From the NCBI RefSeq assembly GCF_000775285.1, contig NZ_JJML01000026.1:56151-120150 (forward strand): a stretch of DNA of 64,000 bases. The letters are read 5' to 3'. The DNA is from Neosynechococcus sphagnicola sy1 (GTDB taxonomy: Bacteria; Cyanobacteriota; Cyanobacteriia; Neosynechococcales; Neosynechococcaceae). Made by a program: the position numbers and the translations under genes. Shown piece after piece: positions 3,646-64,000 of the stretch. The notes beneath the pieces were generated by a model. The model did not search any database. It was not told the origin of the DNA and saw nothing but the letters and a program-made list of their open reading frames with translations. The first letter of the stretch is position 1, and each line of letters starts with the position of its first letter.

Positions 3646-5557
3646 TCAGCTGGAGGGTAGCAAGACCGCCTGAAACGCTTGAGCTTGCTGAGGGTTGGCA
3701 ATGCGTTGGACAAGGGCTGCCACCAACTGACTGCGAGAGGCATGGGGGATTTCAGCCAGTGCCTCTTTTACCACTAAGGGGGCAATGGGGCCAATCGACT
3801 TTGCCAGTTCAATCTCACATCGTTGGATAAAGTCACGATCGACGGGGGGGACTGGCTGGGCTGGTTTCTGGGGCGATCGCCCCTGTCAATTGGGTGGGAG
3901 AACGGGGATCAAAGTCTTCGAGGGACTGGGTTTGCAGGAGTTCATACACTTGGGCTTGCAGCGATCGCCGAGCTGCTTCCGGGACTTGCATCAGCAATCC
4001 TTGGATAAAGCTCTGCCAGGTTGCCGCCTGTTTCAGGGATTGTTGCAGCAGCAAGGGAGCCAGGGGGCCAATCGCCTGGGTCAGGAGGGCTTCTAGTTTG
4101 TGAGCTAGGGGGGGCGGTAAGTTCAAACGACTCGGAAGAGAAGATTGGACTTCCGTGGCGACAGGGGCAAGTTGGGTCGGATTCGCAGCTGGTTTTGCAA
4201 CTTCTAAGGATGCGGGGTTAAACAGCGATTGAATTTGTGCCTGCACCTGGGGACGTGATAGCGCTGGGATTTGATTTAATAAGCGTTCCAACAACTGGTC
4301 ACAGGTGAGTCCTTCGACTAAAGCTTGGTTTAACAACAGGGGCGCGATGGGACCAATGACTTGGGTCAGTAAAGTGGCCAATTCCCGTTGGGAATTCTGC
4401 GTTAGATCGGATAACTGGGTGGAAATTTTCTGCTCCATGGCCGTAGAGGGGAACTCCCCAGGGTTCTTCTCTGGAGGGGGCAGGGTTGTCGCTGGTGGAT
4501 TCGTGCCCTCTGGAACTGGGAGGGCAGCAGGTGGATTACTGGCAGGAGCCGCAGCATCTGCACCAACGGTCGTATCAAAATTGCCAGCAACCAAAGGACG
4601 GGTCGGAGAGATCAGGGGAGGGGAGATCGCCGCTCGCAGAGACCGCTGTAAAATCTCTACCGTTGAACATCGCTGGCTGGGCTGCTTTTGGAGGCACTGC
4701 ATCACCACGGCTTCTAAAGCGGAGGGCAAGGTCTCACACCCCGGTTGCGATCGCAGGGGCTTGGGGGGCAGGCTGGTGTGGGCTCGAATCCAAGAGCTTG
4801 CCGTTGATCCCCCGGTTTTGCCCATCAAACCAAAGGGGTCGGTACCGCTGAGCATCTCATAGAGCATCATCCCGAGACTGTAGATATCAGCCCGACCATC
4901 CAGATCCATTGCTACCTCTAGTTGCTCTGGGGACGCATAGTGGAAGGTGCCAATGAACATATCCGTTTGCAGATTCGTCAGTTCTGCTTCTCCATCTAGA
5001 ATTTTGGCAATGCCAAAGTCAAGAATTTTCACCAATTCACCCAAGCCCGTCGGCACCAGAAAAATATTGTCCGGTTTCAAATCACGGTGAACAATCTTGA
5101 CTCGCTCAACTGTCTGGCTACCCTGACGTTGCAGTACCACCCCCTGATGGGCGAGTTGTAACCCAGTACACACCTGGCTGATAATGGCGACCGTATGTTC
5201 AACTGCCAGTCGTTTTTCCCGCCGGAGTAACTGTCCTAAGGTCTGTCCACTCAAATACTCCATCACAAAAAATGGATGACCTTCTGGGGTGATGCCGTAG
5301 TCGCTGACTTGAACAATATTTTCGCTACTGAGGGCTGCACACAGACTCACCTCGCGGGCAAACCGCTTCCGTACCTCTTCCGTCTCCACCAAGGCAGCTT
5401 TCAAAAGTTTGAGTGCAACTTGCTTTCCCAGCAACATATCGATGGCTAGATACACCTCACCCATCCCGCCCTGGCCCAAACGCCGTTCCAGACGATAGCG
5501 GTTTTTTTCACCAATCAAGCGCTGATGTTGAGAATCAGGCTGGGGCAGGGAACTCAT
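3646..5557 (-). CDS. Ser/Thr protein kinase with C-terminal triple IGPIA repeat module (frameshift in a G7 run at 3844-3850)
   Basis: The 574-aa ORF at 3833..5557 has Hanks kinase motifs (GQGGMGEVY, VALK, HRDLKPDNIF, DFGIAK, SPEQ). A Pro/Ala-rich linker follows, then two ~55-aa repeats (LATLLTQVIGPIAPLLLNQ; LEALLTQAIGPLAPLLLQQ). A third repeat (ELAKSIGPIAPLVVKEALAEIPHASRSQLVAAL...LLPSS*) lies directly downstream in the +1 frame. It joins the kinase frame if the C7/G7 homopolymer is shortened by one base. Confidence 0.8.
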
Positions 5558-6086
5558 GTAGCAACTTCCCGTTGTGTGAGTGAACTGAAAACTTGATTCA
5601 CAGCATACCCAACAGATACCCTGGAACCCTACATTAATTTGCTGATCTGGTTGCAGATTGCCTGCTGGTCTAGGATCTGACCTCTGCTAGGTACAAAGCT
5701 TTTCTGGACAATTTTTTGCTCCCCATCACCATATCCCAAGCCGCCGCCAGCGTGTTGATCTGCCGCTGGAGAGTCTTTTGGCTGCTGCCATTTCAGCCCT
5801 GATCAAGGGTAACCCTTGATGATACCCAGGTGAAAACTCCCCAAACCGTATCCCCAAACCCTTGAACTGCTGGGCTGCATCCCTGAGGAGTTTTTTTTCA
5901 ATGAACCAACCCCCACCCTGTGGACTGGGGTTGCTGTCAAGACCGCTGCCAGACGCTACTATCAATTGCTCAAAGCACTATCCTGATGGAGTTGGAAGTG
6001 CAAAAATGAAGCCGGGGTAGGACTCCGGGTTTTTTGATCACCCCCCAGGGATCTAGATACAGTGGTCTAACTCAAGTGAACCGTTT

Positions 6087-9125: not shown

Positions 9126-9563
9126 TCATTGGGGGGCAACTGTAATTTTGGCCGCGATCGCCGCTGGTATTTCCTGACTCGTCAACTGGGAAGTAACCGG
9201 GTCAACAGTCGCACAAACCACGGTTAATTGTCCCCGTGCCACTTCAATATCTGGCTGCTGCGTGAGGTTGCGAAAAATAAAGGTGTAGGTCAGAGATTTG
9301 GGCTGTTTCTTAGCCACGATCAGGTGAACTTCCAATTGATCTTCAAACCGCAGGGGATGGCGGTAGTCGCAGGTAGCCTGAACACGCGGCCAGAGAAGGG
9401 GAGGTTGATCCCCCATGGATGGGAGAACTGAAATACCCAGGGAGCGAAAGAATGCATGTTCTGCTGCTTCCATCCAACGAAAGAAATGGGTGAAATGTGC
9501 CACTCCGGCCATGTCAGTTTCAGCGAATTCGACCTGTCGCTGCGTCTTAAATTGGTAGGTCAT
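9126..9563 (-). CDS. hotdog-fold acyl-CoA thioesterase (YbgC/4-hydroxybenzoyl-CoA thioesterase family)
   Basis: The ORF spans 9126..9740, but the conserved core begins at the Met at 9563 (MTYQFKTQRQVEFAETDMAGVAHFTHFFRWMEAAEHAFFRSLG), the typical family N-terminus. Confidence 0.6.
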   Translation of the reverse strand: MTYQFKTQRQVEFAETDMAGVAHFTHFFRWMEAAEHAFFRSLGISVLPSMGDQPPLLWPRVQATCDYRHPLRFEDQLEVHLIVAKKQPKSLTYTFIFRNLTQQPDIEVARGQLTVVCATVDPVTSQLTSQEIPAAIAAKITVAPQ

Positions 9564-9865
9564 ACGCTGGGGGGTGTCAAGGGCGAAAGAATCCAGCGAA
9601 CAGTTGCAGATTTCCCTGTTGGTACTCTTGATTTTACTGAACGAGGGAGGGGATTGAATGACAATTAACTGACCGACTGACGACAACGATCTTGTCCGGC
9701 CATCCTGATAAAGAGATAAAGATTCACACTGTTCCCACACTTAATACTAATCAAAAATGAAGTCAAGTAAGATATTGGGAGAGCAAATCAGGGATGGCAG
9801 GAAGACTAAAACTGGAAATCACGCAGAAAGCAGGATACTTGGAAAAAGCCTGAAACAGGCAAAAG

Positions 9866-10378
9866 GTGGGACCCAGAAAGAGCGATCGCAAATGCTGTGG
9901 TGGCTCAAAACAAGACGGGCGATCGCCAACATCAGGAGTTAAGTCGGCGATCGCCCTGTTGGATTCGATCCAGAAAAAAGTGACCTGCTTACAGCAACTT
10001 CAGACCACCCTGCAACTGGAAACCCTTCGTCCCCTGGTGGGTCGATCCGAACAGGTCTGCCAATTGCCGCCCCACCGTGGGGCCTATGATCTGGCACTGG
10101 TGCGAGCCGTGGGTACGGCATCGGTCTGTGCTGAATATGCCCTGCCCCTGTTGCGAGAGCGGGGGGGTGCCATTCTCTATCGGGGAGACAATGGACGGGG
10201 GAAGATACCACTGCCCTAGCCCCTGTTGTCGAGCAACTGGGTGGTCGAATCACCGCCATTGAGGCCGTCGTCACACCCATCAGCCAGAGCAGTCGTCATT
10301 ACCTGAGCCTAGAGAGGCAACGATCCACCCCCGCCGAATTTCCTCGGGCGGTGGGGATTCCAGCGAAATATCCCCTTT
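9866..10378 (+). pseudogene. rsmG: 16S rRNA (guanine527-N7)-methyltransferase RsmG/GidB-like gene, C-terminal two-thirds only; 5' part degenerate
   Basis: The frame from 9866 reads ..AIALLDSIQKKVTCLQQL...YDLALVRAVGTASVCAEYALPLLRERGGAILYRG, a strong RsmG match. The RsmG C-terminus (..ALAPVVEQLGGRITAIEAVVTPISQSSRHYLSLER...AVGIPAKYPL*) continues to 10378 after a 1-nt deletion in a G5 run (10197-10201). I could not find a recognisable SAM motif I or N-terminal region between the thioesterase start (9563) and 9866. That stretch is AT-rich and has stops in every frame. Confidence 0.45.
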
Positions 10379-10407
10379 AGGGAGGATCTGAATTGGTTGC
10401 TGGCTGC

Positions 10408-10644
10408 CCATCTCGTCATTGATACTGCTAAGGTCTAAGTTGAGCCATAATATTAAGTCATGCAATTGACTCTCAAAAACCTGGCCCGATGCTGAGGAGG
10501 TAAGCATTTATCAACGGTAAAATTTGTGTCTAGGGGCGCAACGTTGTCTTCAATACTGGCCTGAGGTTAATACCCTAGAGTTTTCTTCAACACGCTCTTA
10601 AAAAGATATAACTTTAGCACCGCCGCAAAAGACCAGGATCTCTT
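10408..10644 (+). promoter_or_regulatory. conserved leader, copy 1, upstream of radical SAM paralogue 1
   Basis: It shares blocks with 12462..12701 (ATTGATACTGCTAAGGTCT; CATGCARTTGACNCTCAAAA; CTGAGGAG; TTTATCAA). The 3' block of ~85 nt (CTGGCCTGARGTTRATACCYTAGA...TTCAANACGCTNTTAAAAANATATAACTTTARCA) is about 85% identical. It includes a candidate -35 TTCAAC/TTCAAG and -10 TATAAC. Confidence 0.45.
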
Positions 10645-12231
10645 ATGAACGTTTTACTCCTATATCCGCGCTTTCCCAAAAGCTTTTGGTCTTACGAAAA
10701 AATTCTAGAATTGGTCAATCGAAAAGTTCTGTTACCCCCCTTGGGTCTGGTCACGGTCGCTGCCATTCTGCCCCAAGACTGGGACTTTAAGCTGGTTGAT
10801 TGCAATATTCGTGCGGTGACTGATCTGGAATGGCAGTGGGCCGATCTCGTCATTATGTCCGCCATGATTGTCCAGAAAGACGATATTTTAGAGCAGATTC
10901 AGCTGGCCAAGCAATTTAGCAAACCTGTTGCTGTCGGGGGACCTTATCCAACCTCCATGCCGGAAGATATGGAAGCGGCAGGGGTGGATTATCTCATCTT
11001 GGATGAAGGGGAAATTACCCTACCCCTGTTTGTAGAAGCCTGGAATCGCGGCGATAAAAAAGGACGATTCACTGCCAATGGCGAGAAACCGTCTGTTACC
11101 GATACGCCTATCCCCCGCTATGACCTCCTCAGCCTGCGGGACTATGATTCTATGTCGGTGCAGTTTTCCCGTGGCTGTCCTTTCCAGTGTGAGTTTTGCG
11201 ACATTATTGTTCTTTACGGACGCAAGCCCCGCACCAAAACCCCGGAACAACTGCTGGGTGAATTGGACTATCTCTTCCAGTTGGGCTGGCGGGGCGGTGT
11301 GTTTATGGTAGATGACAACTTTATCGGCAATAAGCGCAACGTCAAACTCTTACTCAAGGAGCTAAAAGAATGGCAAAGATCCCATAAATATCCCTTCCGA
11401 TTCGATACGGAAGCATCATTGGATCTGGCCCAGGATCAAGAATTAATTGATCTGATGCTGGAGTGTAATTTTGCCGCCGTCTTTATGGGCATCGAAACGC
11501 CGGATGAAGACAGTTTACAGTTGACGAAAAAGTTCCAAAATACGCGCACACCGCTGTTGGAGTCCATCGATCGGGTGACGGAATCTGGTCTACGTGTGAT
11601 TGCGGGATTTATTATTGGATTTGACGGCGAAAAAGCAGGGGCAGGACAACGTATTGCCGATTTTGCCGAATTGACCGGCATCCCCACAACCACCTTTGCG
11701 ATGCTGCAAGCCTTACCCCATACTGCCCTCTGGCATCGTCTGGAAAAAGAAGGTCGTTTACACGCTAAAGACGGCAATATCAACCAAACAACGCTGATGA
11801 ATTTTGTTCCCACCCGCCCGGTGGAAGAGATTGCCGGCGAGTATGTTGAGGCATTTTGTCAACTCTATGAACCCTCTCATTACCTTGATCGGGTCTATCG
11901 TTACTTTCTCAAATTGGGAGCACCCCGTGTCAAACCGCCATTCAAATGGCCGGAATGGGTTGTGGTTAAAGCCTTACTAATTGTCTGTTGGCGACAAGGC
12001 ATCCTGCGCAAAACTCGTTGGAAATTCTGGCATCATTTGTTGGACATGGTGCGTCGTAATCCCGCCGTTGTCGAACAATATTTGGCTGTATGCGCCCACA
12101 ATGAACACTTTATGGAGTATCGTCAAATTGTCAGACATGAGATTGAAGAGCAGGTTGCCAAGTTTCTAGAAGGGGAAGCACGGCTCAAGCCTGAAATAGC
12201 AAAGATTGCAGAAGTTGTAGCTGTTTCTTGA
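10645..12231 (+). CDS. B12-binding domain-containing radical SAM protein (class B, DUF4070 C-terminal domain), paralogue 1
   Basis: 528 aa. N-terminal cobalamin-binding Rossmann region (LLPPLGLVTVAAILPQDW). Radical SAM core with CxxxCxxC (SRGCPFQCEFCDI). DUF4070-like C-terminus. Confidence 0.85.
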   Translation: MNVLLLYPRFPKSFWSYEKILELVNRKVLLPPLGLVTVAAILPQDWDFKLVDCNIRAVTDLEWQWADLVIMSAMIVQKDDILEQIQLAKQFSKPVAVGGPYPTSMPEDMEAAGVDYLILDEGEITLPLFVEAWNRGDKKGRFTANGEKPSVTDTPIPRYDLLSLRDYDSMSVQFSRGCPFQCEFCDIIVLYGRKPRTKTPEQLLGELDYLFQLGWRGGVFMVDDNFIGNKRNVKLLLKELKEWQRSHKYPFRFDTEASLDLAQDQELIDLMLECNFAAVFMGIETPDEDSLQLTKKFQNTRTPLLESIDRVTESGLRVIAGFIIGFDGEKAGAGQRIADFAELTGIPTTTFAMLQALPHTALWHRLEKEGRLHAKDGNINQTTLMNFVPTRPVEEIAGEYVEAFCQLYEPSHYLDRVYRYFLKLGAPRVKPPFKWPEWVVVKALLIVCWRQGILRKTRWKFWHHLLDMVRRNPAVVEQYLAVCAHNEHFMEYRQIVRHEIEEQVAKFLEGEARLKPEIAKIAEVVAVS

Positions 12232-12461: not shown

Positions 12462-12701
12462 GCTAAGGTCTGATTAAGGCATTATGATTGAGCCATGCAG
12501 TTGACGCTCAAAAGTTGGGTCGGGTACTGAGGAGCAAGGGTTTATCAAAATAAATTTCACTTTAGTAGGTCGCTGCGCTGAGAAGGGTGATCTATGGGGC
12601 GATGGATCCTCTTCATATTGGCCTGAAGTTGATACCTTAGATTTTTTCAAGACGCTGTTAAAAACATATAACTTTAACATTTTACAAAAGGGCCAGGATT
12701 A
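12462..12701 (+). promoter_or_regulatory. conserved leader, copy 2, upstream of radical SAM paralogue 2
   Basis: See copy 1. The first two conserved blocks are locally rearranged relative to copy 1. The promoter-proximal block is conserved. Confidence 0.45.
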
Positions 12702-14304
12702 ATGATGAACGTTTTACTTCTATATCCGCGCTTTCCTAAAAGCTTTTGGTCTTTTGAAAAGACGCTGGCTTTGCTGGATCGCAAAGCGATGTTACCACCC
12801 TTGGGGTTGGTGACCGTTGCCGCAATTCTGCCCCAAGACTGGGAATTTAAGTTGGTTGATCGCAATGTGGGTGAAGTCACCCCAGGGGAATGGGAATGGG
12901 CTGATCTGGTGATCCTGTCTGCCATGATTGTGCAAAAAGAAGATTTGCTCCAGCAGATCCAGGAAGCGAAACGGCGAGGCAAGCGTGTTGCGGTGGGGGG
13001 ACCCTATGCTACTGCACTCCCCCATGAAGTCATGGAAGTGGGGGCAGACTATTTAATTCTGGATGAAGGGGAAATTACTTTACCTTTGTTTGTTGCCGCG
13101 ATCGCCCAAGGTGAAGCCTCCGGCATCTTCCGATCCAATGGTGAACGCCCTGACGTTACCACCACTCCGGTTCCTCGGTTTGACCTGCTGGAGTTTGATG
13201 CCTATGCCGAAATGTCCGTGCAATTTTCGCGGGGATGTCCCTTCCAGTGTGAATTCTGCGACATTATTGTGCTGTATGGCCGCAAGCCTCGCACCAAGGC
13301 TCCCAATCAACTGCTGCAAGAACTGAGTCGCCTCTACGAACTGGGGTGGCGACGGAGCAGTTTTTATGGTGGATGACAATTTCATCGGCAATAAGCGCAA
13401 CGTCAAACTGTTTCTCAAGGAATTGCAGCCCTGGATGGTGGCGCACCAGTATCCCTTCTCCTTCGCCACAGAAGCCTCAGTCGATCTAGCCAACGATCAG
13501 GAGCTGATGGATCTGATGGTGCTATGTAATTTTGGGGCTGTGTTTCTAGGGATTGAAACTCCCGACGAAGCGAGTTTAACCCTGACCCAAAAGTTTCAAA
13601 ACACGCGGGATTCCCTCAGTGGCGCCGTGAATGCCATTACCCGATCGGGGTTGCGAGTCATGGCAGGTTTCATCATTGGATTTGATGGTGAGAAACCCGG
13701 TGCTGGGGCAAGAATTGTCCAATTTGTCGAACAAACTGCCATTCCCACCGCACTGTTCAGTATGCTGCAAGCACTTCCAGACACAGCTCTCTGGCATCGC
13801 TTAGCAAGAGAAGGACGACTGCGTAGTAAGTCTGCCAATATTAACCAAACGACCTTAATGAACTTTGTGCCCACCCGTCCCCTGGAAGAGATTGCCTCTG
13901 AGTACGTAGAAGCCTTTGACCAGTTGTACGATCCAAAACGGTTCCTCGATCGCGCCTATCGTCATTTTCGGATTCTTGGAGAAGCCACCTATCCGAAGAA
14001 AGGGAAAGGGGCGAAGAAACCCATCAACTGGGTGACGATCCGGGCGTTACTAACGATCTGCTGGCGTCAGGGTGTCTTGCGCAAAACCCGGTGGCAATTC
14101 TGGTTCAATCTCTGGAGAATGGGGCGCTACAATCCTGGTGGCATCAGTAGCTATCTAGCTGTCTGTGCCCAAATTGAACATTTCTTGGAATATCGCCAAA
14201 TTGTCAGACGTGAGATTGAAGAGCAGGTTGCCCAGTTTCTAGCGGCAGAAGCGCTGACCAAACCGTTAGTCGCAGCAGTTGCAGAGGTCGCAGCTGTTTC
14301 TTGA
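12702..14304 (+). CDS. B12-binding radical SAM protein (DUF4070), paralogue 2; split by a 1-nt insertion in a T5 run (13361-13365)
   Basis: ORFs 12702..13376 and 13366..14304 together align end to end with paralogue 1 at about 70% aa identity. Reading the T5 run as T4 gives ...LGWRRSSFMVDDNFIGN.., colinear with paralogue 1 (LGWRGGVFMVDDNFIGN). Confidence 0.8.
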
Positions 14305-17976: not shown

Positions 17977-19279
17977 CTAAAGTGCACTTGATTGGTTTAT
18001 CCCTGCTGCAATCCAGGGGCAGAATTGGTGCAAGCCCCAAAATAAGCTACCTGCTAGGGCAGCAGCCATAGGAATGGTCAGCAACCAAGCGAGGAGAATT
18101 CCCCTTAACGTCTGTAACCGAATTTCTAGGGGTGATCGTCGCCCCCAACTTCGAATCAACCCAATGCCGACAACTGCACCGACGAGGGCATGGGACGTAG
18201 AAACGGGGAGACCCAGGCGTGAAGCCAACAGCACCGTCGCCGCTGTTGCCAATTCGGCACAAAAACCCGCACTGGGCTGGACGGGGGGTAATCTGTTCGC
18301 CAATGGTGGTAATTACCTGGTGACCCCAGACAGCTAACCCAGCTACGATCCCGGTACCACCCAAGACAAGCATCCACAGGGGGAGATGGAGGTGATCCGT
18401 GGGCACTGCCCCGGTTTGTTGGATTTGGACGATCACAGCCAGGGGGGCAATGGCATTCCCCACATCATTGGAACCATGGGCAAAGGCCACAAAACAGGCA
18501 CTCAGAACTTGAAAGTGAGCCATGATCTGTTCGGTGAGGTTTTGGGGGGAGAGTCCCACTTGGCTGCGGACTTGGGTGAGGCGTTGCCAACTGGAACCCG
18601 TCAACATCACCAGGGCGATCGCCCCCAGCCCCAGCGCCAAGCTATGGGTGGGCAGGACAAGATCTGGGAACAGCCATGTTTGCAGGTTCAGGCTCAGGGA
18701 AGGCAGCACCAAGACACCGAACACACTCAGCAGCAGGGCACTCAGCCAGGGAATCCATTCTTGCAACTGTTGCAGGGGATGGGGTTGATCAAGAATCCAA
18801 AATTGCATTCCCCGATAGCCCAGAGCAGCAAGTCCCCCACTCACCAAAGGTGTCACCATCCAGGTCAAGGCAATACCCTGGAGCGAGTGCCAGTCCACAG
18901 CCTCGACACCCCCAGCCACCCATCCAAACCCGGCGATCGCCCCTACCACTGCATGGGAGGAGGAGACCGGCCAACCAAACCCAGTCGCCACATTGAGCCA
19001 AATGCCACTGGCCAGCAACACTGTCCCCATCCCCAACAGCAATACCTCTGGCATGGCACCGAATGGGGCGGGATCGACCACCTGGATAGCCAGGGTTTCT
19101 GACACCTGCTGGCCGAAGCAGATCGCTCCTGTAAACTCTAAAATCCCCGCAATCACTAGGGCTTGCCTCAAGGTTACAGCCTTGGAACCCACGGATGTTC
19201 CCATGGAATTGGCCACATCATTGGCACCCAGATTCCAGGCCAGGTAAAAGGCCAGCAGACTCACGAGGAGAATCATCAT
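17977..19279 (-). CDS. pit: inorganic phosphate transporter, PiT family; split by a 1-nt indel in a G6 run (18283-18288)
   Basis: ORF 18047..19279 (MMILLVSLLAFYLAWNLGANDVANSMGTSVGSKA.., GSNDVGNAIAPLAVIV) loses the family signature after GEQIT. ORF 17977..18303 supplies the missing C-terminus (SAGFCAELATAATVLLASRLGLPVSTSHALVGAVVGIGL). The two join across the homopolymer. Confidence 0.85.
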
Positions 19280-19345: not shown

Positions 19346-19707
19346 ATGTCGATTCAAGTTTACGGAATCCCCAACTGCGGTACTTGCAAAAAAGCATTCA
19401 CCTGGCTGAACAATAACGGCGTTGCCTATGAGTTCATTAACACCCAGGAACACCCCCCACCCAAAAACTCATTCAGGGTTGGGTGCAGTCCTTAGGCGCA
19501 AAGCCAATGCGAAACACCTCTGGTCAATCCTACCGAGCCTTGGGCAGCGAAAAAGATAGCTGGACGGACGAGGAGTGGATCGCCGCCTTTGCTCAAGATG
19601 CGATGCTGCTGAAGCGCCCCCTGTTTGTCAAAGATGGGAAGGCAGTGCTGGTGGGGTTTCGGGATGCTGATGATATCATTCGTCAAACCTTGGGTCTAGG
19701 CTCCTAA
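19346..19707 (+). CDS. ArsC/Spx-family thioredoxin-fold protein (YffB-like); split by a 1-nt deletion in a C6 run (19453-19458)
   Basis: MSIQVYGIPNCGTCKKAFTWLNNNGVAYEFINTQEHPP| then ..TQKLIQGWVQSLGAKPMRNTSGQSYRALG...KRPLFVKDGKAVLVGF in the +2 frame. Reading the run as C7 restores a continuous YffB-like protein. Confidence 0.7.
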
Positions 19708-20651: not shown

Positions 20652-20675
20652 CGTTCGCCATCAAAAACAAGCCCC

Positions 20676-21447: not shown

Positions 21448-21475
21448 GTTTGGCCGGAGCAGTGATCGGATTTCA

Positions 21476-22063: not shown

Positions 22064-22291
22064 TTTGCTTTTTCCCTTGCAACGATGCAGATGGGCGTCG
22101 CATCCAATTTCTAGGTTTGCGACTGATTGACCTTGTGCTTGCAGGAGATAGTCAAGACTTGATTCATAGCCCCATTTTATCTGATCAGAAATAGGTTATC
22201 AGTATGCCCGATAGATGATTGTCTGGCTCCGGATCTGCGCCGGACTCCTATTCCTCCCGACGCTCACCTGCGGTAGAGCACGGGGCTGCTG

Positions 22292-46741: not shown

Positions 46742-48239
46742 ATGTCTGCACAACTAAGGTCTCCTGGTTTATCGAATTTAGAGGCAATGAATTCCGGTTT
46801 ACCCAATATTTGTGGGCAGGAAGCGGCAATCAGTGCCGTCGTGAATCATCCTGATCCGGTATTTTTATCCACGACAAATCTCCGCCAGGAAGATATCACC
46901 GCAGGATTTGCCTGTGCGTTGCACATGCATCAGCCCACCATTCCGGGAGGCACCCAGGGTGCCTTAATCAGCAACCTTCAGTACATGTTTGAGCACCCAG
47001 GGGAGGGTGATAACCATAATGCCAGTGTGTTTGCCTGGTGTTACTCCCGCATGGGGGACTTGATTCCAGAATTAGTCTCCCAGGGATGTAATCCCCGCAT
47101 CATGCTTGACTACTCGGGCAATCTCCTGTGGGGACTGCAGCAAATGGGTCGCCATGACATCCTCACCCGTCTGAAACGCATCACCTGTGAGTCCCAATAT
47201 CAGCCCTATGTGGAATGGCTGGGAACCATGTGGAGTCATGCGGTGGTTCCCTCCACCCCGATTCCTGATATCAAGCTGCACATTCAAGCTTGGCAACAGT
47301 CCTTCGCTGCGATTTTTGGGGAGGCAGCTCTGAAGCGGGTGAAGGGCTTTTCCCCCCCGGAAATGCATTTGCCCAATCACCCAGACACGCTGTATGAGTA
47401 CATCAAAGCCTTGAGAGATTGCGGCTATCGCTGGCTGATGGTTCAAGAGCATTCCGTTGAAAATCTAGATGGGTCAGGATTACGGCAGCAACAGAAATAT
47501 ATTCCCCATCGCCTGGTAGCTCGGAATTCCCAGGGTGATAGCGTCTGGATCACGGCGCTGATTAAAACCCCAGGGGTCGGATACCAAGTTAGTAGCTCAG
47601 ATGCAACCTTACTTTGAAGCCAAAGGATGGGGCAGACAGACCCTAGGCGATCGCACCATTCCCTCCCTGGTGACTCAAATTGCCGATGGGGAAAACGGTG
47701 GGGTGATGATGAATGAATTTCCCCGCGACTTTCCCAGAATTTGGCAGGAGATTCGCCAACAGGGTGACGGGCGCTCCGGTGTCGTGGGTTTGAATGGCAC
47801 GGAGTACTTAGAAATGATCACAGCAGCGGGCGTCAGTCCCGAAGATTACCCAACCTGTCAGGCGGTACAGCAACACCAGATTTGGCAGCGCGTCAACCCG
47901 GAAGAGGCCACCTCCGCAGCGGTGGAGCAGGCAATCCAGGATCTGAAGCAAACCGATCACCGCTTCCACATGGATGGGGCATCCTGGACTAACAACCTCA
48001 GTTGGGTGGCCGGCTACGAAAACGTTCTCGAGCCGATGAATCAACTCAGTGCGGCCTTCCATCAGAAATACGATCCACTGGTGCAATCTGACCCCAATGT
48101 TACCCAGCGGCCTGACTATCAGGAAGCCCTGTTATATAACCTGTTGCTACAAACCAGTTGTTTTCGTTACTGGGGTCAGGGTGCTTGGACGGAGTATGCC
48201 CGTGAGATCTATCGTCGCGGAGCCGCCTTATTGACTTGA
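46742..48239 (+). CDS. glycoside hydrolase family 57 protein; split by a frameshift near 47560-47640
   Basis: ORF 46742..47617 carries the GH57 hallmark (ALHMHQPTIP). ORF 47601..48239 (+1 frame) is colinear with the GH57 C-terminal half. The combined length of ~500 aa fits cyanobacterial GH57 enzymes. I could not pin the exact indel site (candidates are the A4, C4 and G4 runs at 47563-47576). Confidence 0.65.
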
Positions 48240-49696: not shown

Positions 49697-51904
49697 ATGC
49701 GCCTATCTCCCGTATTGGTGGCAGCCGTTGCGACAACGGCAACCCTTTGCGCTGCCAGCCCCACCCGAGGACAGGCTTTAGATGCCCGACTGCTCGAGAC
49801 GGAAGCCCTGGTAGCTTCCCAGGTCAACGAGCCGCATCCTTCAGTGGGGGAAGGATACCCTCAGGCTGCACCCATCCCTGACACGGTGCTAGCACAGCAA
49901 CCAGCCTCGGCTCCCCCTAGCCCCGCTGCCGATGGGCCTCCACCAGAACAACCCGCTGCCCCAGGAACGCCGTCCCAGATACAGCAGGCTCCCGATCAGT
50001 TTCGGTTCAACTTCACCCCCCAGAACACATCTCCAAATCCTATCCAGGTTGATCTCACTCCCCCCCAACCGGCACAACCAACGGTGCCGTCTCCCATTCA
50101 GACTCAACCCGCTGCAACCGATGAGTCAGAACCCCGGGTTTTGGTTTCAGAGGTGTTCGTTGAGGGGGTCGATGGCACCCTCCAAGATGCGGTTTATGGA
50201 GCCATCCGTACCCAGCCAGGGAGAACTGCAACCCGCTCCCAACTGCAAGCGGATGTGAATGCAATTTTTGCCACAGGTTTTTTCGCCACTGTCCGGGTTG
50301 ACCCCTCGGATACGCCCCTGGGAGTGCGCGTTACCTTTGTGGTTCAACCTAATCCGGTGTTGACGAAGGTACAGGCCACTGGCATTAAGGTGCTGCCACC
50401 CGCTGTAGTTGAGAAAATCTTCAGCCCCCAGTATGGCTCGACGTTAAGCTTCCGCAAGTTGCAGGACGGCATCAAAGAGCTGAATAAGTGGTATCAGGAT
50501 AACGGCTATGTGCTCGCCCAGGTTGTCGGTTCTCCCAAGGTGGCAGATGACGGCACCGTCACCCTGGAAGTTGCCGAGGGTCAGATTGAGGAAATTAAGA
50601 TTCGCTATGTCAGCAAAGAGGGCGAAGAAGTCGATGCCAAGGGGCGGCCAATTCGCGGTCGGACTCGCCCCTATGTGATCACCCGTGAGTTACAGCTGAA
50701 ACCGGGAGATGTCTTTAACCGTAATACCATTCAAACCGATCTACAGCGGGTGTTTGGTTTGGGAATTTTTGAGGATGTGAAGGTTGCCCTCAATCCCGGT
50801 AAGGATCCTCGTCAAGTTGTGGTGGTCTTGAATGTGGCCGAGAAAAATAGCGGCTCCATCGCCGCTGGTGCTGGGTTCAGTTCTGCCAGTGGTTTGTTTG
50901 GAACCCTTAGCTATCAGCAGCAAAATTTCCGGGGCCGCAACCAGAAAATTGGGGCAGAGTTGGTTTTGGGTACGCGAGAATTATTATTTGATTTGAGCTT
51001 CACCGATCCCTGGATCAAGGGTGACCCCTACCGCACCTCCTTCACGACGAATATTTTCCGACGGCAGTCCATTTCTTTGGTGTTTGACGGCGATGATACG
51101 ACGATTCGATTACCCAATGGGGATGAACCACGGGTACAACGGGTGGGGGGGGGCTTTAGTTTTTCCCGTCCCTTGGCAAAAAATCCGTTTGTGAAAGCGA
51201 ATTGGGTGGCCTCCCTGGGCATGATCTACCAACACGTAACGATTCGGGATGCCGATGGGGTTCTCAGTCCCCGCGCCAATACCGGGGAACTCTTGAGTTT
51301 TAGTAACTCCGGGGTGGATGACCTGACCACGATTGTCTTTGGTCTCACCCGCGATCGCCGGAATGATCCGCTCCTGCCCACTAAGGGTTCCCTGCTGCGC
51401 ATGGGTATGGAGCAGTCGATTCCCGTTGGTTCCGGCAGCATTCTGTTTAACCGTGTCCGCGCCAGCTATACCTACTTTATTCCAGTGCGTTTTGTCAGCT
51501 TCAGACCCGGCCCCCAGTCTTTGGCCTTTAACTTCCAAACCGGCGGGGTTTTTGGGGATCTCCCCCCCTATGAAGCCTTTGCCTTGGGAGGGAGTAACTC
51601 CGTCCGGGGATATGCCGATGGGGAACTGGGCAGTGGTCGGTATTTTGTTCAGGGTACGGCTGAATATCGCTTCCCATTGTTTTCGATTCTCAGTGGTGCG
51701 TTGTTCTTTGATGCAGCCAGTGACCTAGGCTCTGGCAGTTCTGTGCCGGGGGATCCATCCGGTGCGCGGGGTTTGCCGGGTAGTGGCTTTGGCGGAGGTC
51801 TAGGGGTTCGTATTAATTCACCCATTGGCCCCATCCGCGTTGACTATGGTATTAACAACGAGGGGGATGGTCGCTTTTCCTTCGGGATTGGACAGCGGTT
51901 CTAA
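49697..51904 (+). CDS. bamA: Omp85/BamA-family outer membrane protein assembly factor (Pro-rich N-terminus, POTRA domains, C-terminal beta-barrel)
   Basis: ORF 49613..51904. Probable start at [22 protein letters not shown], a signal peptide. POTRA-like repeats. Bacterial surface antigen barrel with a terminal aromatic residue (..GIGQRF*). Confidence 0.85.
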
Positions 51905-51954: not shown

Positions 51955-52810
51955 ATGCCAGTGGGAATCCGGTCGCAAGTCCAGCACACACTCCGGGCCG
52001 TAGTCGAACAGGTTGGGATTGGTCTCCATACCGGCCAAACGACCCAGGTGCAAATTTGTCCGGCAGCGATTGATCGGGGTCGGGAGTTTGTGCGAGTTGA
52101 TCTACCGACTGCGCCGACGATTCCAGCAGCGATTGGGCAGGTGTATCCAACGGCGCTTTCCACGGAGTTGGCGGTCGGCGAGGCCAGAATCCGTACCGTG
52201 GAGCATTTATTGGCCGCGTTGCTGGGGTTGGGGGTGGACAATGTTCAAATTCGGGTGGATGGCCCCGAAATCCCGCTATTGGATGGCTCGGCTCAGGGTT
52301 GGGTGCAGGCGATCGCCGCCGTGGGCTTGCAATCTCAAGCCGTGCCTCGCTCCTGGGCTGTCCTAAGGCAACCCCTGTGGGTGCAGCAGGGAGATGCCTT
52401 TGTGGCTGCCCTTCCGGCTGGGGAGCATCGCTTTACCTATGGTATTGACTTTGAACTGCCCGCTATTGGCAATCAATGGCACAGTTGGTCCCCCACGGAA
52501 ACCGCAGCTAGCTTTACAGAAGCGATCGCCCCAGCGCGTACCTTTGGGTTAGCCCATCAAATTGAGTACCTGCGAAGCCAGGGCTTGATTCAGGGCGGCA
52601 GTCTGGAAAATGCCCTTGTGTGTGGGCCAGAGGGATGGCTCAACCCCCCCCGTGCGATTTTTGAATGAGCCGGTGCGCCATAAACTTCTAGACTTATTAG
52701 GAGATCTCAGTTTATTGGGGACACTGCCCCAGGCTCACTATCTAGCCTATAAGGCCAGCCATGCCTTGCATTTGCAGTTGGCGCAATCCCTGGTCTCTCA
52801 GATGTCCTGA
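51955..52810 (+). CDS. lpxC: UDP-3-O-acyl-N-acetylglucosamine deacetylase; split by a 1-nt insertion in a C8 run (52644-52651)
   Basis: ..[26 protein letters not shown].. then EGWLNPP| followed by [35 protein letters not shown] in the next frame. Reading the run as C7 restores full-length LpxC. Confidence 0.9.
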
Positions 52811-52874: not shown

Positions 52875-53389
52875 ATGTCTCCACTGACTGATACCCATAC
52901 CACTACACCGAGTACACCCGCCGTTCCCCTTGATACACCTCTGGCAGCACCTGCCACCATTTTCACCGTTGAGGATATCCACAAACTGCTCCCCCATCGC
53001 TATCCCTTTGCCTTGGTGGACAAGATTATTGAGTATGTTCCGGGGAAACGGGCAGTGGGGGTGAAAAATGTGACCTTCAATGAGCCGCATTTCCAGGGGC
53101 ATTTTCCCGGTCGCCCGATTATGCCAGGGGTGTTAATTGTGGAAGCCATGGCCCAGGTGGGGGGGTGGTCATGACCCAAATGCCAGAGATGCCGCAGGGA
53201 GGACTGTTTTTGTTCGCTGGGATTGATGGTGTGCGCTTCCGTCGCCCGGTGGTACCGGGGGATCAACTGATCCTGACCGTGGAACTGCTCTGTATCAAAC
53301 GCCGTCGCTTTGGCAAAATGCAGGGGGTTGCCGAGGTCGGCGGTCAGCGGGCGGCAGAAGGGGAGTTGATGTTTTCCCTCGTAGATTAG
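52875..53389 (+). CDS. fabZ: 3-hydroxyacyl-ACP dehydratase FabZ; split by a 1-nt deletion in a G7 run (53159-53165)
   Basis: ..[60 protein letters not shown]| then [31 protein letters not shown]. Confidence 0.9.
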
Positions 53390-54309: not shown

Positions 54310-55526
54310 TGACCCGCATCTTTATTAGTACCGGGGAAGTCTCTGGGGATCTCCAAGGTGCGCTGTTAATTGCTGCTTTGCGTCGTCAAGCTCAGCAACT
54401 GGGAATTCCCTTGGAAATTGCCGCCCTCGGCGGCGATCGCATGGCAGCGGCAGGGGTCGACCCTGTTGGGGAAAACCCAGCCACATTGGCTCCATTGGAC
54501 TCCTGGAATCCCTCCCCTATTTGCTGCCAACCCTGACCGTGCAGCGCCAAGCCAAACGCTATCTGCGGCAGTACTCCCCCGATGTGATTGTCCTGATTGA
54601 CTATATGGGGCCAAATCTTGGCATTGGGTGGTTTGCCCGTCAGCATTATCCCCAGGTGCCCATCGTCTACTACATTGACCCCCCAGGAATGGGTGTGGTC
54701 CCTGAATCAACGCAATACTCGGCGGATTGTCCAGTTCACCGATCAGCTCCTGGCAGTGTTTCCCGGTGAAGCCCATTACTATCAGCAGCAAGGGGCGGCG
54801 GTTACCTGGGTTGGGCATCCCCTGTTGGATCAAATGTCCACAGCTCCCAGTCGAGAACAAGCGCGGCTGGCCTTGGGCATTGCCCCCAATCAATGGGCGA
54901 TCGCCTTGGTACCCGCCTCTCGCCAGCAGGAGTTGCAGACTTTATTACCCGTGATCCTAGAAGCTGCCCGTCAGCTGCAAGCCCAGATCCCCAATACTGA
55001 CCCCCAGCAACCCTTATTTTGGATTCCCCTTTCTTTAGAAGCCTATCGTGCTCACCTGCAACAGGCGATCGCCGCTGCTGGGTTACGGGCCCAACTGGTG
55101 CCAGACAGGGGGCATCCCCAAGGGGATTGGTTACGGCGCTGTGCGATCGCGGCGGCGGATTTAGCCATCACTAAATCTGGCACGGTGAATCTGGAAATCG
55201 CTCTCATGCAGGTACCCCAGGTGGTAATCTATCGGGTTAGTCCATTCACCGCTTGGGTGGCGCAGCATCTCTTGAAGTTCTCCATTCCCTTCATGGCCCC
55301 CCCTAACCTGGTGACAATGCGCCCGATTGTGCCGGAATTACTCCAGGGAAAGGCCACCGCTCCCAATATTGTCCGGGAATCCTTAGATCTCCTCCTCAAC
55401 CCTACTCGACGGCAGCAAATTCAGCAGGACTATCAAGCCATGCGGCAGTCTTTGGGGGAGCCTGGAGTTGCCGATCGCGCAGCTCTGGCAATTTTGAAAC
55501 TAGACCTATTGCGTCAATCAAAATGA
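54309..55526 (+). CDS. lpxB: lipid-A-disaccharide synthase; two compensating homopolymer indels (about 54471-54480 in an A4C3 run; C6 at 54679-54684)
   Basis: Three ORFs (54309..54536, 54521..54769, 54597..55526) are colinear with LpxB: MTRIFISTGEVSGDLQGALL.. then (S)IGLLESLPYLLPTLTVQRQAKRY..VLIDYMGPNLGIGW..VYYID then PQEWVWSLNQRNTRRIVQFTDQLLAVFPGEA... Confidence 0.85.
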
Positions 55527-55740: not shown

Positions 55741-56928
55741 TTAGGAGAACCCTGATCTGCCGCCGTCATCGGCACCTCCGGGGGAACCTTCACCGCCACC
55801 AACTGACCCAGGCCACTGACCCCCCCCCCATTGATCCAGCACATCTCTGACGAGAATTTCCCGCAGCCACACCTGCCCCACCACCGTTAAGGGAATCGCC
55901 ATCACCAAGCCAAAAAAGCCGAAGATCGTGGCAAAAAAGACTTGGCACAGTAAGGTGAGGGCAGGGAGCAAGGCCACCTGCTGCGCCATGATGTAGGGTG
56001 TCAGCAGACTACTTTCAAACTGCTGGATGCCAAAGTAAAGAATCAATACAAATACGGCCTTCAAACCGTCATCCAAGAGGGCGATCGCCATGGGCGGCAC
56101 GACGCTAAAGGCTGGCCCCACATTGGGGATAAAATTTAGCAGCCCCGCCAGCACGGCATTCGCAAGGGGGAGTTTTACCTGTAATAGGAACAGCCCCAGC
56201 CAACTCAGAATCGAGATCACACCCATACTCATCAGTGCCCCCACAATCCAAGCGGCCAGGGCAGTTTCCGTGTGACTTAAGATCTCCGCCATCCGAGGGC
56301 GATAGAAGGCTGGGAACAGCCGGATGAACAGCTGGCGATAGCCTTGCGGGTTGGCCAGAAACATCAGGGCCAAGACCAGCAGCAACAGCAGGTTTAACAC
56401 AAAATTCAAGGACCCAGAAACCAGCACCAGCGACCCCCCCAGCAACCGATTTGCGTAGGGGCGCATCTGCTGCAACAGATGTTCACTGTCGGGGATCACC
56501 TCCTCCACCTGTTGGGGCAACTGCACCTTAAAGCTATTCAACCAGTGGGTGATCCGGTCGAGTCCTTGAGGCACCAGCAGTTGGAGCTCCTGAAACTGTT
56601 CCGTGAACGGCGGCACGATCAGAAAAAACACCAGGGTGAAGAACAGCACGAGAACGCCTACCGCTGCGAGCACCGCCCAGGGTCGTTGCATTCCCAGCCG
56701 TTGCCAGCGCCGGGCCAGACGATTGAGCGCCGTTGCCAGCACCACGGCGGTAAACACCAGTAACAGTAACTGTCGAATCTGCCACAGGATGTATAAGGAC
56801 AGCATCAATGCGATCAAACCCAGCCATGCGCCAAATTTCACAGCCCAGACTCCCTTGATGAAGGTTCGCGTTGCTCCCAGAGCTGTCTTTGAGCATTGCC
56901 TGTGATCGAGAATCGTCGGGCGCGCCAA
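55741..56928 (-). CDS. AI-2E (PerM/UPF0118) family transporter
   Basis: 395 aa with ~8 TM helices. Family-typical loops (..LLNFIPNVGP..). TTG start predicted. Confidence 0.75.
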   Translation of the reverse strand: MARPTILDHRQCSKTALGATRTFIKGVWAVKFGAWLGLIALMLSLYILWQIRQLLLLVFTAVVLATALNRLARRWQRLGMQRPWAVLAAVGVLVLFFTLVFFLIVPPFTEQFQELQLLVPQGLDRITHWLNSFKVQLPQQVEEVIPDSEHLLQQMRPYANRLLGGSLVLVSGSLNFVLNLLLLLVLALMFLANPQGYRQLFIRLFPAFYRPRMAEILSHTETALAAWIVGALMSMGVISILSWLGLFLLQVKLPLANAVLAGLLNFIPNVGPAFSVVPPMAIALLDDGLKAVFVLILYFGIQQFESSLLTPYIMAQQVALLPALTLLCQVFFATIFGFFGLVMAIPLTVVGQVWLREILVRDVLDQWGGGQWPGSVGGGEGSPGGADDGGRSGFS

Positions 56929-61890: not shown

Positions 61891-61915
61891 CCGTCTGAGT
61901 CCAAGGGACAAGGGT

Positions 61916-62653
61916 TCAGAGGGAGGCTTGGGGGTTGCGATTCAACCCATAGGGGATAGGATCAGTGCGTCCTAGTTCCGCAAAAGCAGTGAGCCGCAGC
62001 TGGCAGGCATCACAAGTACCACAGGCCTCATCACCTCCGGCATAGCAGGACCAGGTAAGTTCCCACGGCACCCCTAAGCGATCGCCCAGTTCGATGATGG
62101 CTGTTTTTTTTAAGGTGATCAGGGGGGTAACGATGGCGATCGCCGTGCCTTCTCGTCCCTGTTTGGTTCCCAACTGAAAGACGGTTTGCATGGCTTGAAT
62201 ATAGTCAGGACGGCAGTCTGGATAGCCAGAGTAATCGAGACTATTGACCCCGAGATAGACCCGTTCAGCGGCGATCGTCTCGCCATAGGCAAGGGCAAAG
62301 CTGAGAAAAATTGTATTTCGAGCTGGCACATAAGTCACAGGAATAGTCTGACTCATCTCCGCCAGAGAACGGCTTTGGGGTAAATCAATTTCGACATCGG
62401 TGAGAGCAGAGCCCCCCCACTGCCGCAGATCAAAACTGACCACCTGATGATCGATAACACCGGCACACTGGGCAATGGTTCGGGCTGCGGTTAATTCCCG
62501 CCGATGGCGCTGCTGATAGTCAAAGGAGAGGGCATAACAGTCGCAGCCATCTGCTTGGGCTTGGTACAGTACCGTTGCCGAATCCAGTCCCCCCGATAGC
62601 AATATTACAGCTTTCACAGTTCCGGCTCCTGGGTTGATCGAGTTTAACTTCAT
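61916..62653 (-). CDS. queC: 7-cyano-7-deazaguanine synthase
   Basis: AVILLSGGLDSATVL PP-loop. C-terminal Zn-binding Cys cluster (CYAGGDEACGTCDAC). Confidence 0.9.
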   Translation of the reverse strand: MKLNSINPGAGTVKAVILLSGGLDSATVLYQAQADGCDCYALSFDYQQRHRRELTAARTIAQCAGVIDHQVVSFDLRQWGGSALTDVEIDLPQSRSLAEMSQTIPVTYVPARNTIFLSFALAYGETIAAERVYLGVNSLDYSGYPDCRPDYIQAMQTVFQLGTKQGREGTAIAIVTPLITLKKTAIIELGDRLGVPWELTWSCYAGGDEACGTCDACQLRLTAFAELGRTDPIPYGLNRNPQASL

Positions 62654-62893: not shown

Positions 62894-63100
62894 ATGAACA
62901 GCAATGATCTGGCACAATACCTCGAAGCAACGGATAGTGTTTTCAAACCCTGGCTGCTGATGCGATTCTGTCTTCAAAATCTGAAGCAGCATCCGTCCAG
63001 CTTCCCCCCAGAAGATGACCCTCTGGAAATGGCTGATATCCACCCGGATCTTATGAACCTTTGGGAAGGGTGGCAGGGAGTTGAAGATGAAGTCTTCTAA
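62894..63100 (+). CDS. small acidic hypothetical protein (68 aa)
   Basis: ORF only. It overlaps an antisense ORF of equal plausibility. Confidence 0.2.
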   Translation: MNSNDLAQYLEATDSVFKPWLLMRFCLQNLKQHPSSFPPEDDPLEMADIHPDLMNLWEGWQGVEDEVF

Positions 63101-64000
63101 ACCTTCCCCTCGCAACAAAAACATGACTAGATCGAACAAGCCAACGGTTGAGATCAACCTCAGTGACCCACAGTACTACTACAACCGCGAAGTCAGCTGG
63201 CTGGAATTTAACAATCGGGTTCTCAGTGAAGCCTTTGACCCCCGCACCCCTTTACTGGAACGCCTGAAGTTTCTCGCCATCTTCAGCTCTAATTTAGACG
63301 AGTACTTCATGGTCAGGGTTTCAGCCATTAAAGAACAGATTGAGGCAGGGGTGACCCAACTCACTCCCGATGGTTTAACCCCTTCAGAACAACTTGCAAC
63401 CATCTATCAACGGCTGCGTCCTACGGTGATCAAGCAGCATCAACACTTTGAGCAGGAACTCCGACCCTTACTTGCTGCCCAGGGCATTCATCTCTTAGAC
63501 TACATTGATCTCAGCCAGGAACAACGCACCTACCTTCAGAATTATTTTGAACAACAAATTTTCCCGGTGCTGACCCCTCTGGCCGTTGATCCAGGTCATC
63601 CTTTTCCCTTCATTTCAAACCTCAGTCTCAATTTGGCAGTCGTGGTCAAAGATGGGGAAACGGGAGCCGAACTGTTTGCCCGGGTCAAAGTTCCCAACTC
63701 CCTGCCGCGAGTTTTTATCGTTGCCAGAGGAGTTGCGCCTCACCCATGAAAATCAGCCAGTGGCTTGGACTGGGGTGCCCCTGGAACAGGTGATCGCCCA
63801 CAACCTGGAGTTTTTGTTCCCAGGGATGAATATTCAGGAGTACCACCCCTTCCGGATTACGCGGGATGCCGATGTGGAACTGCAAGAAGATGAGGCAGAT
63901 GATCTGTTGCAGGCGATTGAAGAAGTGCTCCGCCAGCGACGCTTTGGCGGCTCTGTGGTGCGCTTAGAAATTCAAGCTTCCATGCCAGAAACCGTTCGCA
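63081..64000 (+). CDS. ppk: polyphosphate kinase 1, 3'-partial; 1-nt insertion in a T5 run (63712-63716)
   Basis: ..YYNREVSWLEFNNRVLSEA...LDEYFMVRVS.. The +1 frame then continues as LPRVLSLPEELRLTHENQPVAWTGVPLEQVIAHNLEFLFPGMN... to the window end. Confidence 0.9.

Follow-up and report, generated by a model that had tools for sequence, protein, structure and literature searches.

Background and related systems

Frameshifts within the poly(A) tracts of insect endosymbiont genes are reportedly rescued by transcriptional slippage, in work attributed to Tamas et al. in 2008. The locus described here also has frameshifts within homopolymers of needed genes; however, the endosymbiont tracts are A/T runs of at least 9 nt in reduced, AT-rich genomes, whereas the runs here are mostly G/C, of 4–8 nt, and the organism is free-living with a GC content of 52%. 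At the contingency loci of Haemophilus, Neisseria and Campylobacter, a change in homopolymer length likewise shifts the reading frame, but those tracts are long and located towards the 5′ ends of restriction-modification or surface genes, while the hits here are in housekeeping genes, at arbitrary positions. 'Nostoc azollae' is an example of a genuinely pseudogene-rich cyanobacterial genome and shares the large number of broken genes per kilobase. Decay of this kind leaves several lesions in a gene and lesions of mixed types, namely stop codons, deletions and IS elements, a picture that rsmG alone resembles here.

The locus also resembles the consensus errors of 454, Ion Torrent and early long-read sequencing, in the ±1 changes within runs, the mixture of over- and under-calls, the dependence on run length, the cure by a single base and the split ORFs in conserved, essential genes. 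It differs from them in that an independent-looking k-mer assembly from the SRA repeats the same run lengths. In cyanobacterial Nanopore assemblies, the same homopolymer effect was cured by polishing (10.1101/2024.08.22.609136).

Frame-breaking lesions in the window

The sequence analysed (the window) is a stretch of 64,000 nt within a 147.5-kb contig (147,498 nt) of the draft genome of Neosynechococcus sphagnicola sy1, a free-living cyanobacterium that has been grown and imaged in culture. The source assembly is the 2014 draft GCA_000775285.1 (4.33 Mb, 118 contigs, GC 51.59%), and the proteins of the window are on record, in identical form, as KGF724xx/WP_0365337xx. We found 16 frame-breaking lesions spread over 15 of the ∼55 genes in the window (about a quarter), a density of ∼1 frameshift per 4 kb:

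3844–3850, minus strand: Ser/Thr kinase, C-terminal region; C7 on the coding strand, 1 nt too long
10182–10190, plus strand: rsmG remnant; 2-nt GA insertion, GGGGAGACAATGG where GGGGACAATGG is expected (at about 10186–10190)
13361–13365, plus strand: second B12-binding radical SAM/DUF4070 gene; T5, 1 nt too long
18283–18288, minus strand: Pit/PHO4 phosphate transporter (pit); C6 on the coding strand, 1 nt too long
19453–19458, plus strand: ArsC/Spx-family gene; C6, 1 nt too short
20621–20626, plus strand: queF (preQ1 synthase); C6, 1 nt too long
21290–21297, plus strand: hisF; G8, 1 nt too long
31211–31217, plus strand: small two-helix membrane protein; T7, 1 nt too long
33639–33646, plus strand: family-2 glycosyltransferase (GT2); T8, 1 nt too long
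38863–38869, plus strand: lepB (signal peptidase I); C7, 1 nt too long
47568–47571, plus strand: GH57-family gene; C4, 1 nt too long (true run C3)
52644–52651, plus strand: lpxC; C8, 1 nt too long
53159–53165, plus strand: fabZ; G7, 1 nt too short
54468–54475, plus strand: lpxB, break 1, in GGGGAAAA, which holds two 4-nt runs; 1 nt too short
54679–54684, plus strand: lpxB, break 2; C6, 1 nt too long
63712–63716, plus strand: ppk (polyphosphate kinase 1); T5, 1 nt too long

The first-pass annotation had proposed that every disrupted gene is broken inside a homopolymer run of 5–8 nt. Fifteen of the 16 lesions are indeed changes of ±1 nt within mononucleotide runs, here of 4–8 nt, the exception being the 2-nt GA insertion of rsmG. 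Most sites fall within the proposed range of lengths; the GH57 site (C4) and the first lpxB break both lie in 4-nt runs. Twelve of these lesions make the run too long by one base and three make it too short by one. All 12 runs that had been listed with coordinates are present where they had been placed, and at each of them a change of one base lengthens the ORF. Profile alignments that cross the junction in a single stretch identify the run as the true junction for 11 of these, and not for rsmG. The queF lesion was absent from that list.

No nonsense codons or larger lesions were found in the broken genes besides rsmG, and none of the 14 repaired genes contains an in-frame stop. Both halves of each split gene (rsmG apart) remain fully conserved. 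The remaining genes of the window have complete profile coverage, and essential genes that are intact include valS, rpsB, tsf, bamA, lpxA and purC. Rfam and tRNA scans of the window gave no matches. A C10 run is found at 55820–55829, in the tail of an AI-2E transporter gene.

One-base corrections restore conserved proteins

Correcting the run by one base had been expected to restore a full-length, colinear protein in every case. This holds for 14 genes, with lpxB requiring two corrections, and fails for rsmG. Essential genes are among those affected, as had been pointed out: fabZ, lpxC, lpxB, lepB and hisF are all split.

The corrected hisF product matches TIGR00735 in a single stretch over positions 1–254 of 254 (E = 6e-117), and corrected lepB matches TIGR02227 over 4–162 of 162 (E = 2e-44). 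The match of uncorrected queF to Pfam QueF ends at position 64 of 81; correction restores the C-terminus and gives a TIGR03139 match over 6–114 of 115. The two lpxC pieces match positions 1–219 and 217–267 of the 268-position LpxC profile, and the corrected product matches TIGR00325 over 3–274 of 297. Its junction, GWLNPPVRF, fits the pattern GW(L/I)NPPLRF / GWLNPP(L/V)RF that is invariant in 28 LpxC homologs. The best 120 homologs include 119 other LpxC proteins of 231–332 aa, mostly full length, and no second copy from N. sphagnicola.

For fabZ, tblastn alignments change frame precisely at 53159–53165, and the corrected product matches TIGR01750 over 2–140 of 141. A three-frame comparison of lpxB with its homologs places the first frame change between MAAAG and (K)PSHIGSIG. 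At the second break, shortening C6 to C5 restores VYYIDP|QEWVW, where homologs read VYYIAPQEWVW (motif VYYI(A/D)PQEWVW). With both corrections, lpxB matches TIGR00215 over 2–382 of 382.

Deleting one base extends the kinase ORF from 617 to 679 aa. The downstream piece of 79 aa is the third copy of an internal repeat with an IGPIAPL motif, matching the two upstream copies in BLASTP with E = 1e-5 and 5e-4 and also the protein encoded at 1033–1569 with E = 1e-4. The radical SAM ORF at 13361 increases from 325 to 541 aa on correction; NCBIfam matches span the corrected junction in one stretch, and its sequence LGWRRSSFMVDDNF matches LGWRGGVFMVDDNF of the intact tandem paralog at 10618–12228. Correction of pit lengthens its ORF from 422 to 445 aa; PHO4 positions 271–350 of 350 are matched by the downstream piece, and a PitA stretch (299–414) crosses the corrected junction. 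The corrected ArsC/Spx protein, of 120 aa, matches TIGR01617 over 1–110 of 117 in a single stretch (E = 3.5e-37).

The GT2 ORF lengthens from 239 to 338 aa, with profiles crossing the corrected junction in one stretch (e.g. EpsD 8–221). The two ppk pieces match positions 1–70 and 61–153 of the 183 in the PP_kinase profile; after correction, residues 4–291 align in one stretch to 8–285 of 707, the gene running past the end of the window.

Two further breaks had been put forward, the second of them tentatively, and both are real. The first, a GH57 break near 47.6 kb, was located at the C4 run, where correction restores the junction ITALIKTQGSDTKLVAQMQP, invariant in 30 homologs. The corrected protein of 498 aa shares 75–80% identity, across 100% of its length, with homologs of 494–501 aa, and it is from the sources of these homologs that the GH57 name is taken. 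No second N. sphagnicola copy was present among the best 120 homologs. The second is the membrane protein near 31.2 kb, whose homologs have 123–130 aa and align from exactly the T7 run onwards; the fused 125-aa protein aligns with them end to end, and the invariant residues W7, L19, A25, P26, N30 and S31 span the junction.

Lesion frequency depends on run length

Grouping the coding runs by length gave 2 hits among 678 4-mers (0.3%), 2 among 208 5-mers (1.0%), 4 among 59 6-mers (6.8%), 4 among 21 7-mers (19%) and 3 among 4 8-mers (75%). The probability of a lesion thus climbs steeply with run length, as is expected of an artefact. Runs of at least 5 nt make up only ∼3% of the sequence, and at eight sites the stop-bounded window around the junction holds its own longest run there, with p = 0.0026–0.076 each (p = 0.0026 for GT2 and p = 0.009 for hisF). 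The coincidence of lesions with runs is far beyond chance.

Runs of at least 7 nt occur at 0.53 per kb in this genome, compared to 0.14 per kb in 26 related loci of similar GC content, a ∼3–4-fold excess. Among runs of at least 6 nt, nine of the 11 hits are in G/C runs. Long runs inside intact ORFs are common, for example a T8 in queC and a G9 in bamA. The in-frame G9 counts against an artefact, as its survival would be somewhat lucky if 75% of 8-mers fail.

The rsmG remnant is an exception

The break in rsmG had been assigned to the G5 run at 10197–10201. This assignment proved incorrect: the lesion lies upstream and is a GA insertion within GGGGAGACAATGG, since every homolog reads YRG-x-W at this place. 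The motif, YRG-x-W(T), is also read in a second RsmG fragment from Neosynechococcus (P0250). After any repair, rsmG matches profile positions 70–152 of 183 only. The N-terminal ∼100 aa (the N-terminal half) is missing together with the SAM-binding motif; a search of all frames between 9560 and 9950 gave no GxGxG. Because of the 2-nt insertion and the loss of the N-terminal half, rsmG is probably a true, eroded pseudogene of a dispensable gene. Mixed lesions and lost conserved segments, the marks of genome decay, were seen in rsmG and in none of the other 14 genes.

Comparison with read-derived assemblies and other genomes

We compared the window with Logan, a set of k-mer assemblies (k = 31), using two SRA runs from 2024, SRR29904084 and SRR29904083. 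The SRR29904084 assembly is 100% identical to the window over 38244–59493 and 20515–22870, with 0 differences in 23.6 kb, and these stretches take in nine frameshift sites, all with the run lengths of the window. The splits in hisF and lepB are likewise present in its contigs (L082 and L084, respectively), and the SRR29904083 assembly gives the same split lpxC, fabZ and lpxB gene calls. Should the two runs consist of independent reads of the strain at high accuracy, this agreement would count against an artefact. A literature search found no paper citing SRR29904084. No platform for GCA_000775285.1 was stated in the literature searched, the 2014 genome paper lying outside that search. Logan contig ends were considered as marks of error-prone homopolymers and rejected; they fall at GTAGCGATCA-type motifs in conserved coding motifs, with one in a TPR repeat.

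A scan of GTDB species found no relative close enough for a comparison of run lengths (LpxA at most 76%), and the closest relatives in the protein searches, which took in JGI data, had 72% identity for LpxC and 80% for GH57. Exact look-up of ten corrected full-length proteins in a collection of 15 billion proteins returned no intact alleles. An ENA protein (P0122) in the same cluster as the hisF fragment was set aside, since it belongs to another organism whose synteny differs. A single ORF runs through the frameshift site in 28 LpxC, 30 GH57 and 9 membrane-protein homologs, and likewise in LpxB and FabZ of related genomes. Judged from these alignments, the sites lack the conservation across orthologs that would mark programmed frameshifting or transcriptional slippage.

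The origin of the frameshifts

The 15 run-length lesions are very probably sequencing or assembly artefacts, with rsmG, probably a true pseudogene, as the exception. The first-pass annotation had reached the same reading for all of the lesions; it is best supported for 15 of the 16 and does not extend to rsmG. Essential, single-copy genes are hit in a cultured strain and other types of lesion are absent, which makes an artefact the best explanation. What can be read directly from the sequence is where the lesions lie and in which direction they go, how they depend on run length and how exactly a one-base fix restores each protein. We infer that it is the sequence record that is in error, rather than the DNA of the cell. 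The consensus would have miscalled run length by one base at many places, the likely cause being a chemistry or basecalling that reads run length from signal intensity (flow-based or early long-read, the platform being our inference). Targets would be plentiful because the genome is truly rich in G/C runs. A miscall within a gene would shift the frame, and gene callers would then output two fragments or a pseudogene.

It is unlikely that the frameshifts are real in sy1 DNA, for instance in a polyploid lineage deficient in mismatch repair that gathers slippage mutations in G/C runs, while wild-type genome copies or slippage, transcriptional or ribosomal, preserve function. Slippage mutation too scales with run length, and the excess of long runs, the G/C bias of the hits and the agreement of the contigs from the two 2024 runs at every run length over 23.6 kb all fit such a lineage. 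However, about a quarter of the genes would be lost, fabZ, lpxC, lepB and hisF among them, despite photoautotrophic growth in culture, and no second LpxC or GH57 copy was detected among the best 120 homologs of each. Several breaks are in runs of 4–5 nt, where slippage rescue is not known, and the gene halves are perfectly conserved, with no nonsense or other lesions. That every run length is correct, with about a quarter of the genes truly frameshifted and the strain surviving by polyploid heterozygosity or slippage recoding at short G/C runs, we regard as quite improbable.

The contig might instead be a redundant, decaying duplicate, from a second replicon or a co-cultured sister strain, with functional copies elsewhere. 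The second RsmG fragment, labelled N. sphagnicola (WP_420805873.1), is 91% identical and lies on a different contig (33,641 nt), and a published survey flagged five of 47 ribosomal proteins of the assembly as contaminant. We nevertheless consider a duplicate very unlikely: neither the LpxC nor the GH57 search had a second copy among its best 120 homologs, the intact essential genes lie on the same window, and decay would not leave otherwise pristine genes whose lesions are all ±1 in runs. Mass phase variation, in which the runs would be contingency loci switching genes on and off, has a single point in its favour, that the breaks lie in simple runs. It is hardly credible, as the tracts, of 4–8 nt, lie in housekeeping biosynthetic genes (hisF, fabZ, lpxB/C, lepB, queF and ppk) rather than in surface or restriction-modification genes. 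They also occur anywhere in the ORF, at lengths down to 4–5 nt, and the amino acids are the same in homologs, which show no tract-dependent switch.

Consequences for the genome record

Fragments are already carried by the annotation, such as the 99-aa FabZ entry WP_338038645.1, and Prodigal calls LpxC as 254 + 66 aa, FabZ as 99 + 72 aa and LpxB as 75 + 277 aa. Real run lengths would make sy1 a remarkable example of a strain that tolerates frameshifting en masse, but the evidence favours the opposite reading. If they are artefacts, the assembly needs polishing or re-sequencing. The only public Neosynechococcus genome would then hold many truncated or split protein entries, which have already spread to RefSeq, UniRef and Logan-derived catalogues. 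Frameshift errors in sy1 would therefore bias tables of gene presence, counts of pseudogenes and estimates of completeness, as well as any phylogenomic or selection analysis that draws on this genome.

Run-length correction restores the split genes

All 12 of the homopolymers named in the first-pass annotation as sites of frame breaks were present at their coordinates, and at each of these sites the addition or removal of one base in the run produced a longer ORF. Before repair, the two LpxC pieces abutted on the profile (positions 1–219 and 217–267 of 268), as did the three LpxB pieces (1–44, 46–117 and 116–370 of 374). The fabZ pieces matched positions 1–64 and 80–137 of 138 on the FabA profile, and the ppk pieces 1–70 and 61–153 of 183 on the PP_kinase profile. 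Corrected proteins were compared with full-length equivalog models, giving single-stretch matches.

Model positions matched in one stretch by the corrected proteins
hisF: 1–254 of 254
lpxC: 3–274 of 297
fabZ: 2–140 of 141
lepB: 4–162 of 162
arsC-related: 1–110 of 117
lpxB (two repairs): 2–382 of 382
queF: 6–114 of 115
ppk: 8–285 of 707

Comparison with homologs places the frame-break junctions at the runs. In tblastn searches with FabZ of relatives, the frame changed exactly at 53159–53165. Shortening the LpxB C6 run to C5 results in VYYIDP|QEWVW, and the corrected LpxC junction reads GWLNPPVRF, where homologs have an invariant GW(L/I)NPPLRF. The corrected GH57 junction, ITALIKTQGSDTKLVAQMQP, is invariant in 30 homologs, and that of the second radical-SAM gene, LGWRRSSFMVDDNF, agrees with the intact tandem paralog; these B12-binding radical SAM/DUF4070 paralogs lie at 10618–12228 (intact) and 12678–14301 (split at T5). 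The downstream piece of the kinase is the third copy of an internal repeat.

We then surveyed the whole window, scoring every ORF for codon usage, mapping about 55 genes and scanning the leftover ORFs against Pfam. This added a frameshift in queF, at C6 20621–20626. The membrane protein at 31.2 kb, tentatively proposed as split, proved to have homologs of 123–130 aa whose alignment begins exactly at the T7 run; the fused protein (125 aa) aligns throughout, with invariant residues on either side of the junction. For the gene called GH57 the frameshift stood. The gene has no Pfam or NCBIfam match but its name is carried by its homologs, the corrected 498-aa protein being 75–80% identical over its full length to ∼500-aa proteins named GH57 at source. 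The proposed run range of 5–8 nt did not hold for GH57 (C4) or the first lpxB break (GGGGAAAA), both of which lie in runs of four.

Other features were also noted. A Methyltransf_24 gene (39812–40618) has a codon-usage score of 0.022 per residue, against ∼0.2 in its neighbours, and may have been acquired from elsewhere. Upstream of an AAA_35-domain gene (26454–27977) is a 1.2-kb AT-rich stretch (25200–26450; GC 34–40% against 52% overall) with no ORF of at least 60 aa and no Rfam or tRNA match. The adjoining 327-aa ORF (24283–25263, minus strand) has no family match and was not selected by codon usage. The cyanobacterial HIP1 palindrome GCGATCGC occurs 70 times (1.09 per kb). On an unrelated cyanobacterial metagenome contig (ERZ23487348, scaffold_1501; 10001–10768), hisF is called as two pieces of 81 and 129 aa, possibly a further case of an assembly in which this gene is broken.

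Frameshifts and run length

Of the coding runs of 4, 5, 6, 7 and 8 nt, 2/678, 2/208, 4/59, 4/21 and 3/4, respectively, carried a frameshift, with an extra base in 12 cases and a missing base in three. At eight sites, finding a run as long as that observed within the stop-codon-bounded region had a per-site p of 0.0026–0.076 relative to random windows of equal size. Runs of at least 7 nt occur at 0.53 per kb, ∼3.8 times the density in 26 GC-matched loci from related cyanobacteria (0.14 per kb). Most of them lie inside intact ORFs, and these are therefore real features of this genome. Examples of runs of this length are G9 in bamA (51145–51153), C10 (55820–55829), T8 in queC (62104–62111) and C7 in rpsB (30355–30361). 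In the AI-2E transporter (55741–55900, minus strand), the Pfam domain ends ∼37 residues before the stop, and a predicted glycine-rich tail, which may or may not be in frame, comes after the G10 run (coding strand; C10 at 55820–55829).

rsmG differs from the other genes

A one-base error in a G5 run had been proposed for rsmG. This was not upheld: every rsmG homolog has YRG-x-W, so the window carries two extra bases (GA) in GGGGAGACAATGG. After repair, only profile positions 70–152 of 183 are covered, and neither the N-terminal part nor the GxGxG SAM-binding motif is present in any frame of 9560–9950. The gene is dispensable and has probably undergone true pseudogenisation. A second Neosynechococcus RsmG fragment (WP_420805873.1), also with the YRG-x-W motif, is a C-terminal fragment of 113 aa, 91% identical and labelled N. 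sphagnicola, on a different contig (33,641 nt); it could stem from another strain present in the culture or the assembly, or from a more recent assembly.

Genome and read-derived contigs

The window is of cyanobacterial origin, with a GC content of 51.7%; the assembly (GCA_000775285.1/GCF_000775285.1) comprises 4.33 Mb in 118 contigs at 51.59% GC. A published survey flagged 5 of 47 ribosomal proteins of GCA_000775285.1 as contaminant. The 99-aa FabZ fragment has an identical GenBank/RefSeq entry under Neosynechococcus sphagnicola sy1, on a contig of 147,498 nt, as do PurC, the first radical-SAM protein, the SpoIIE/PP2C phosphatase and the ABC ATPase. For LpxA, identity to the GTDB species representatives does not exceed 76%. 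None of the papers searched states the sequencing platform, which may have been a flow-based one.

Logan assemblies of SRA runs, built at k = 31 from data of any platform after removal of singleton k-mers, contain matching contigs. Those of SRR29904084 agree with the window at 100% identity across 38244–59493 and 20515–22870, and in the sibling run SRR29904083 the lpxC, fabZ and lpxB gene calls are split likewise (>2 million contigs for SRR29904083/SRR29904084). The matching contigs (L082, L084 and L001) end at 20515, 22870, 45649/45676 and 59493, with an L084/L001 overlap of 28 nt. Four of the five distinct ends are within 13 nt of TAGCGATC, and GTAGCGATCA has exactly three copies in the 64 kb, every one at a contig end. 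A conserved D-R-Y tripeptide is encoded at three of the four motif-associated ends and V-A-I-I at the fourth. Our guess is that the ends reflect k-mers common to other cyanobacteria in the same run.

Artefact or pseudogenisation

We consider it likely that the frameshifts, other than the lesion in rsmG, are artefacts. A viable cell with fabZ, lpxC, lpxB, lepB and hisF all broken is near-impossible, and sy1, a free-living organism, grows in culture; an independent study (10.1101/2021.11.01.465933) cultivated and imaged it. No second lpxC or GH57 copy of this species was found among the best 120 homologs per search, which also argues for artefact. So does the uniformity of the lesions; in-frame stops, large deletions and insertion elements were not seen in the window's conserved genes. 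Moreover, conservation is complete in both halves of each gene, and the stop codon falls where it is typical for the family.

Against this must be weighed the uncertain origin of the SRA runs, whose Logan data repeat the run lengths and splits of the window and so make the artefact reading less certain. SRR29904083 and SRR29904084 could be a late deposit of the original, error-prone reads, a simulation based on the assembly, or real re-sequencing; of these, only the last would overturn that reading. Ten corrected full-length proteins had no exact match in a 15-billion-protein collection, and the homolog search found no close relative for run-length comparison.

We conclude that the window shows a defect in the quality of a public draft genome, severe though of an ordinary kind, together with what is probably one true pseudogene, rsmG. 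The main use of this result is as a caution for users of the N. sphagnicola sy1 genome.
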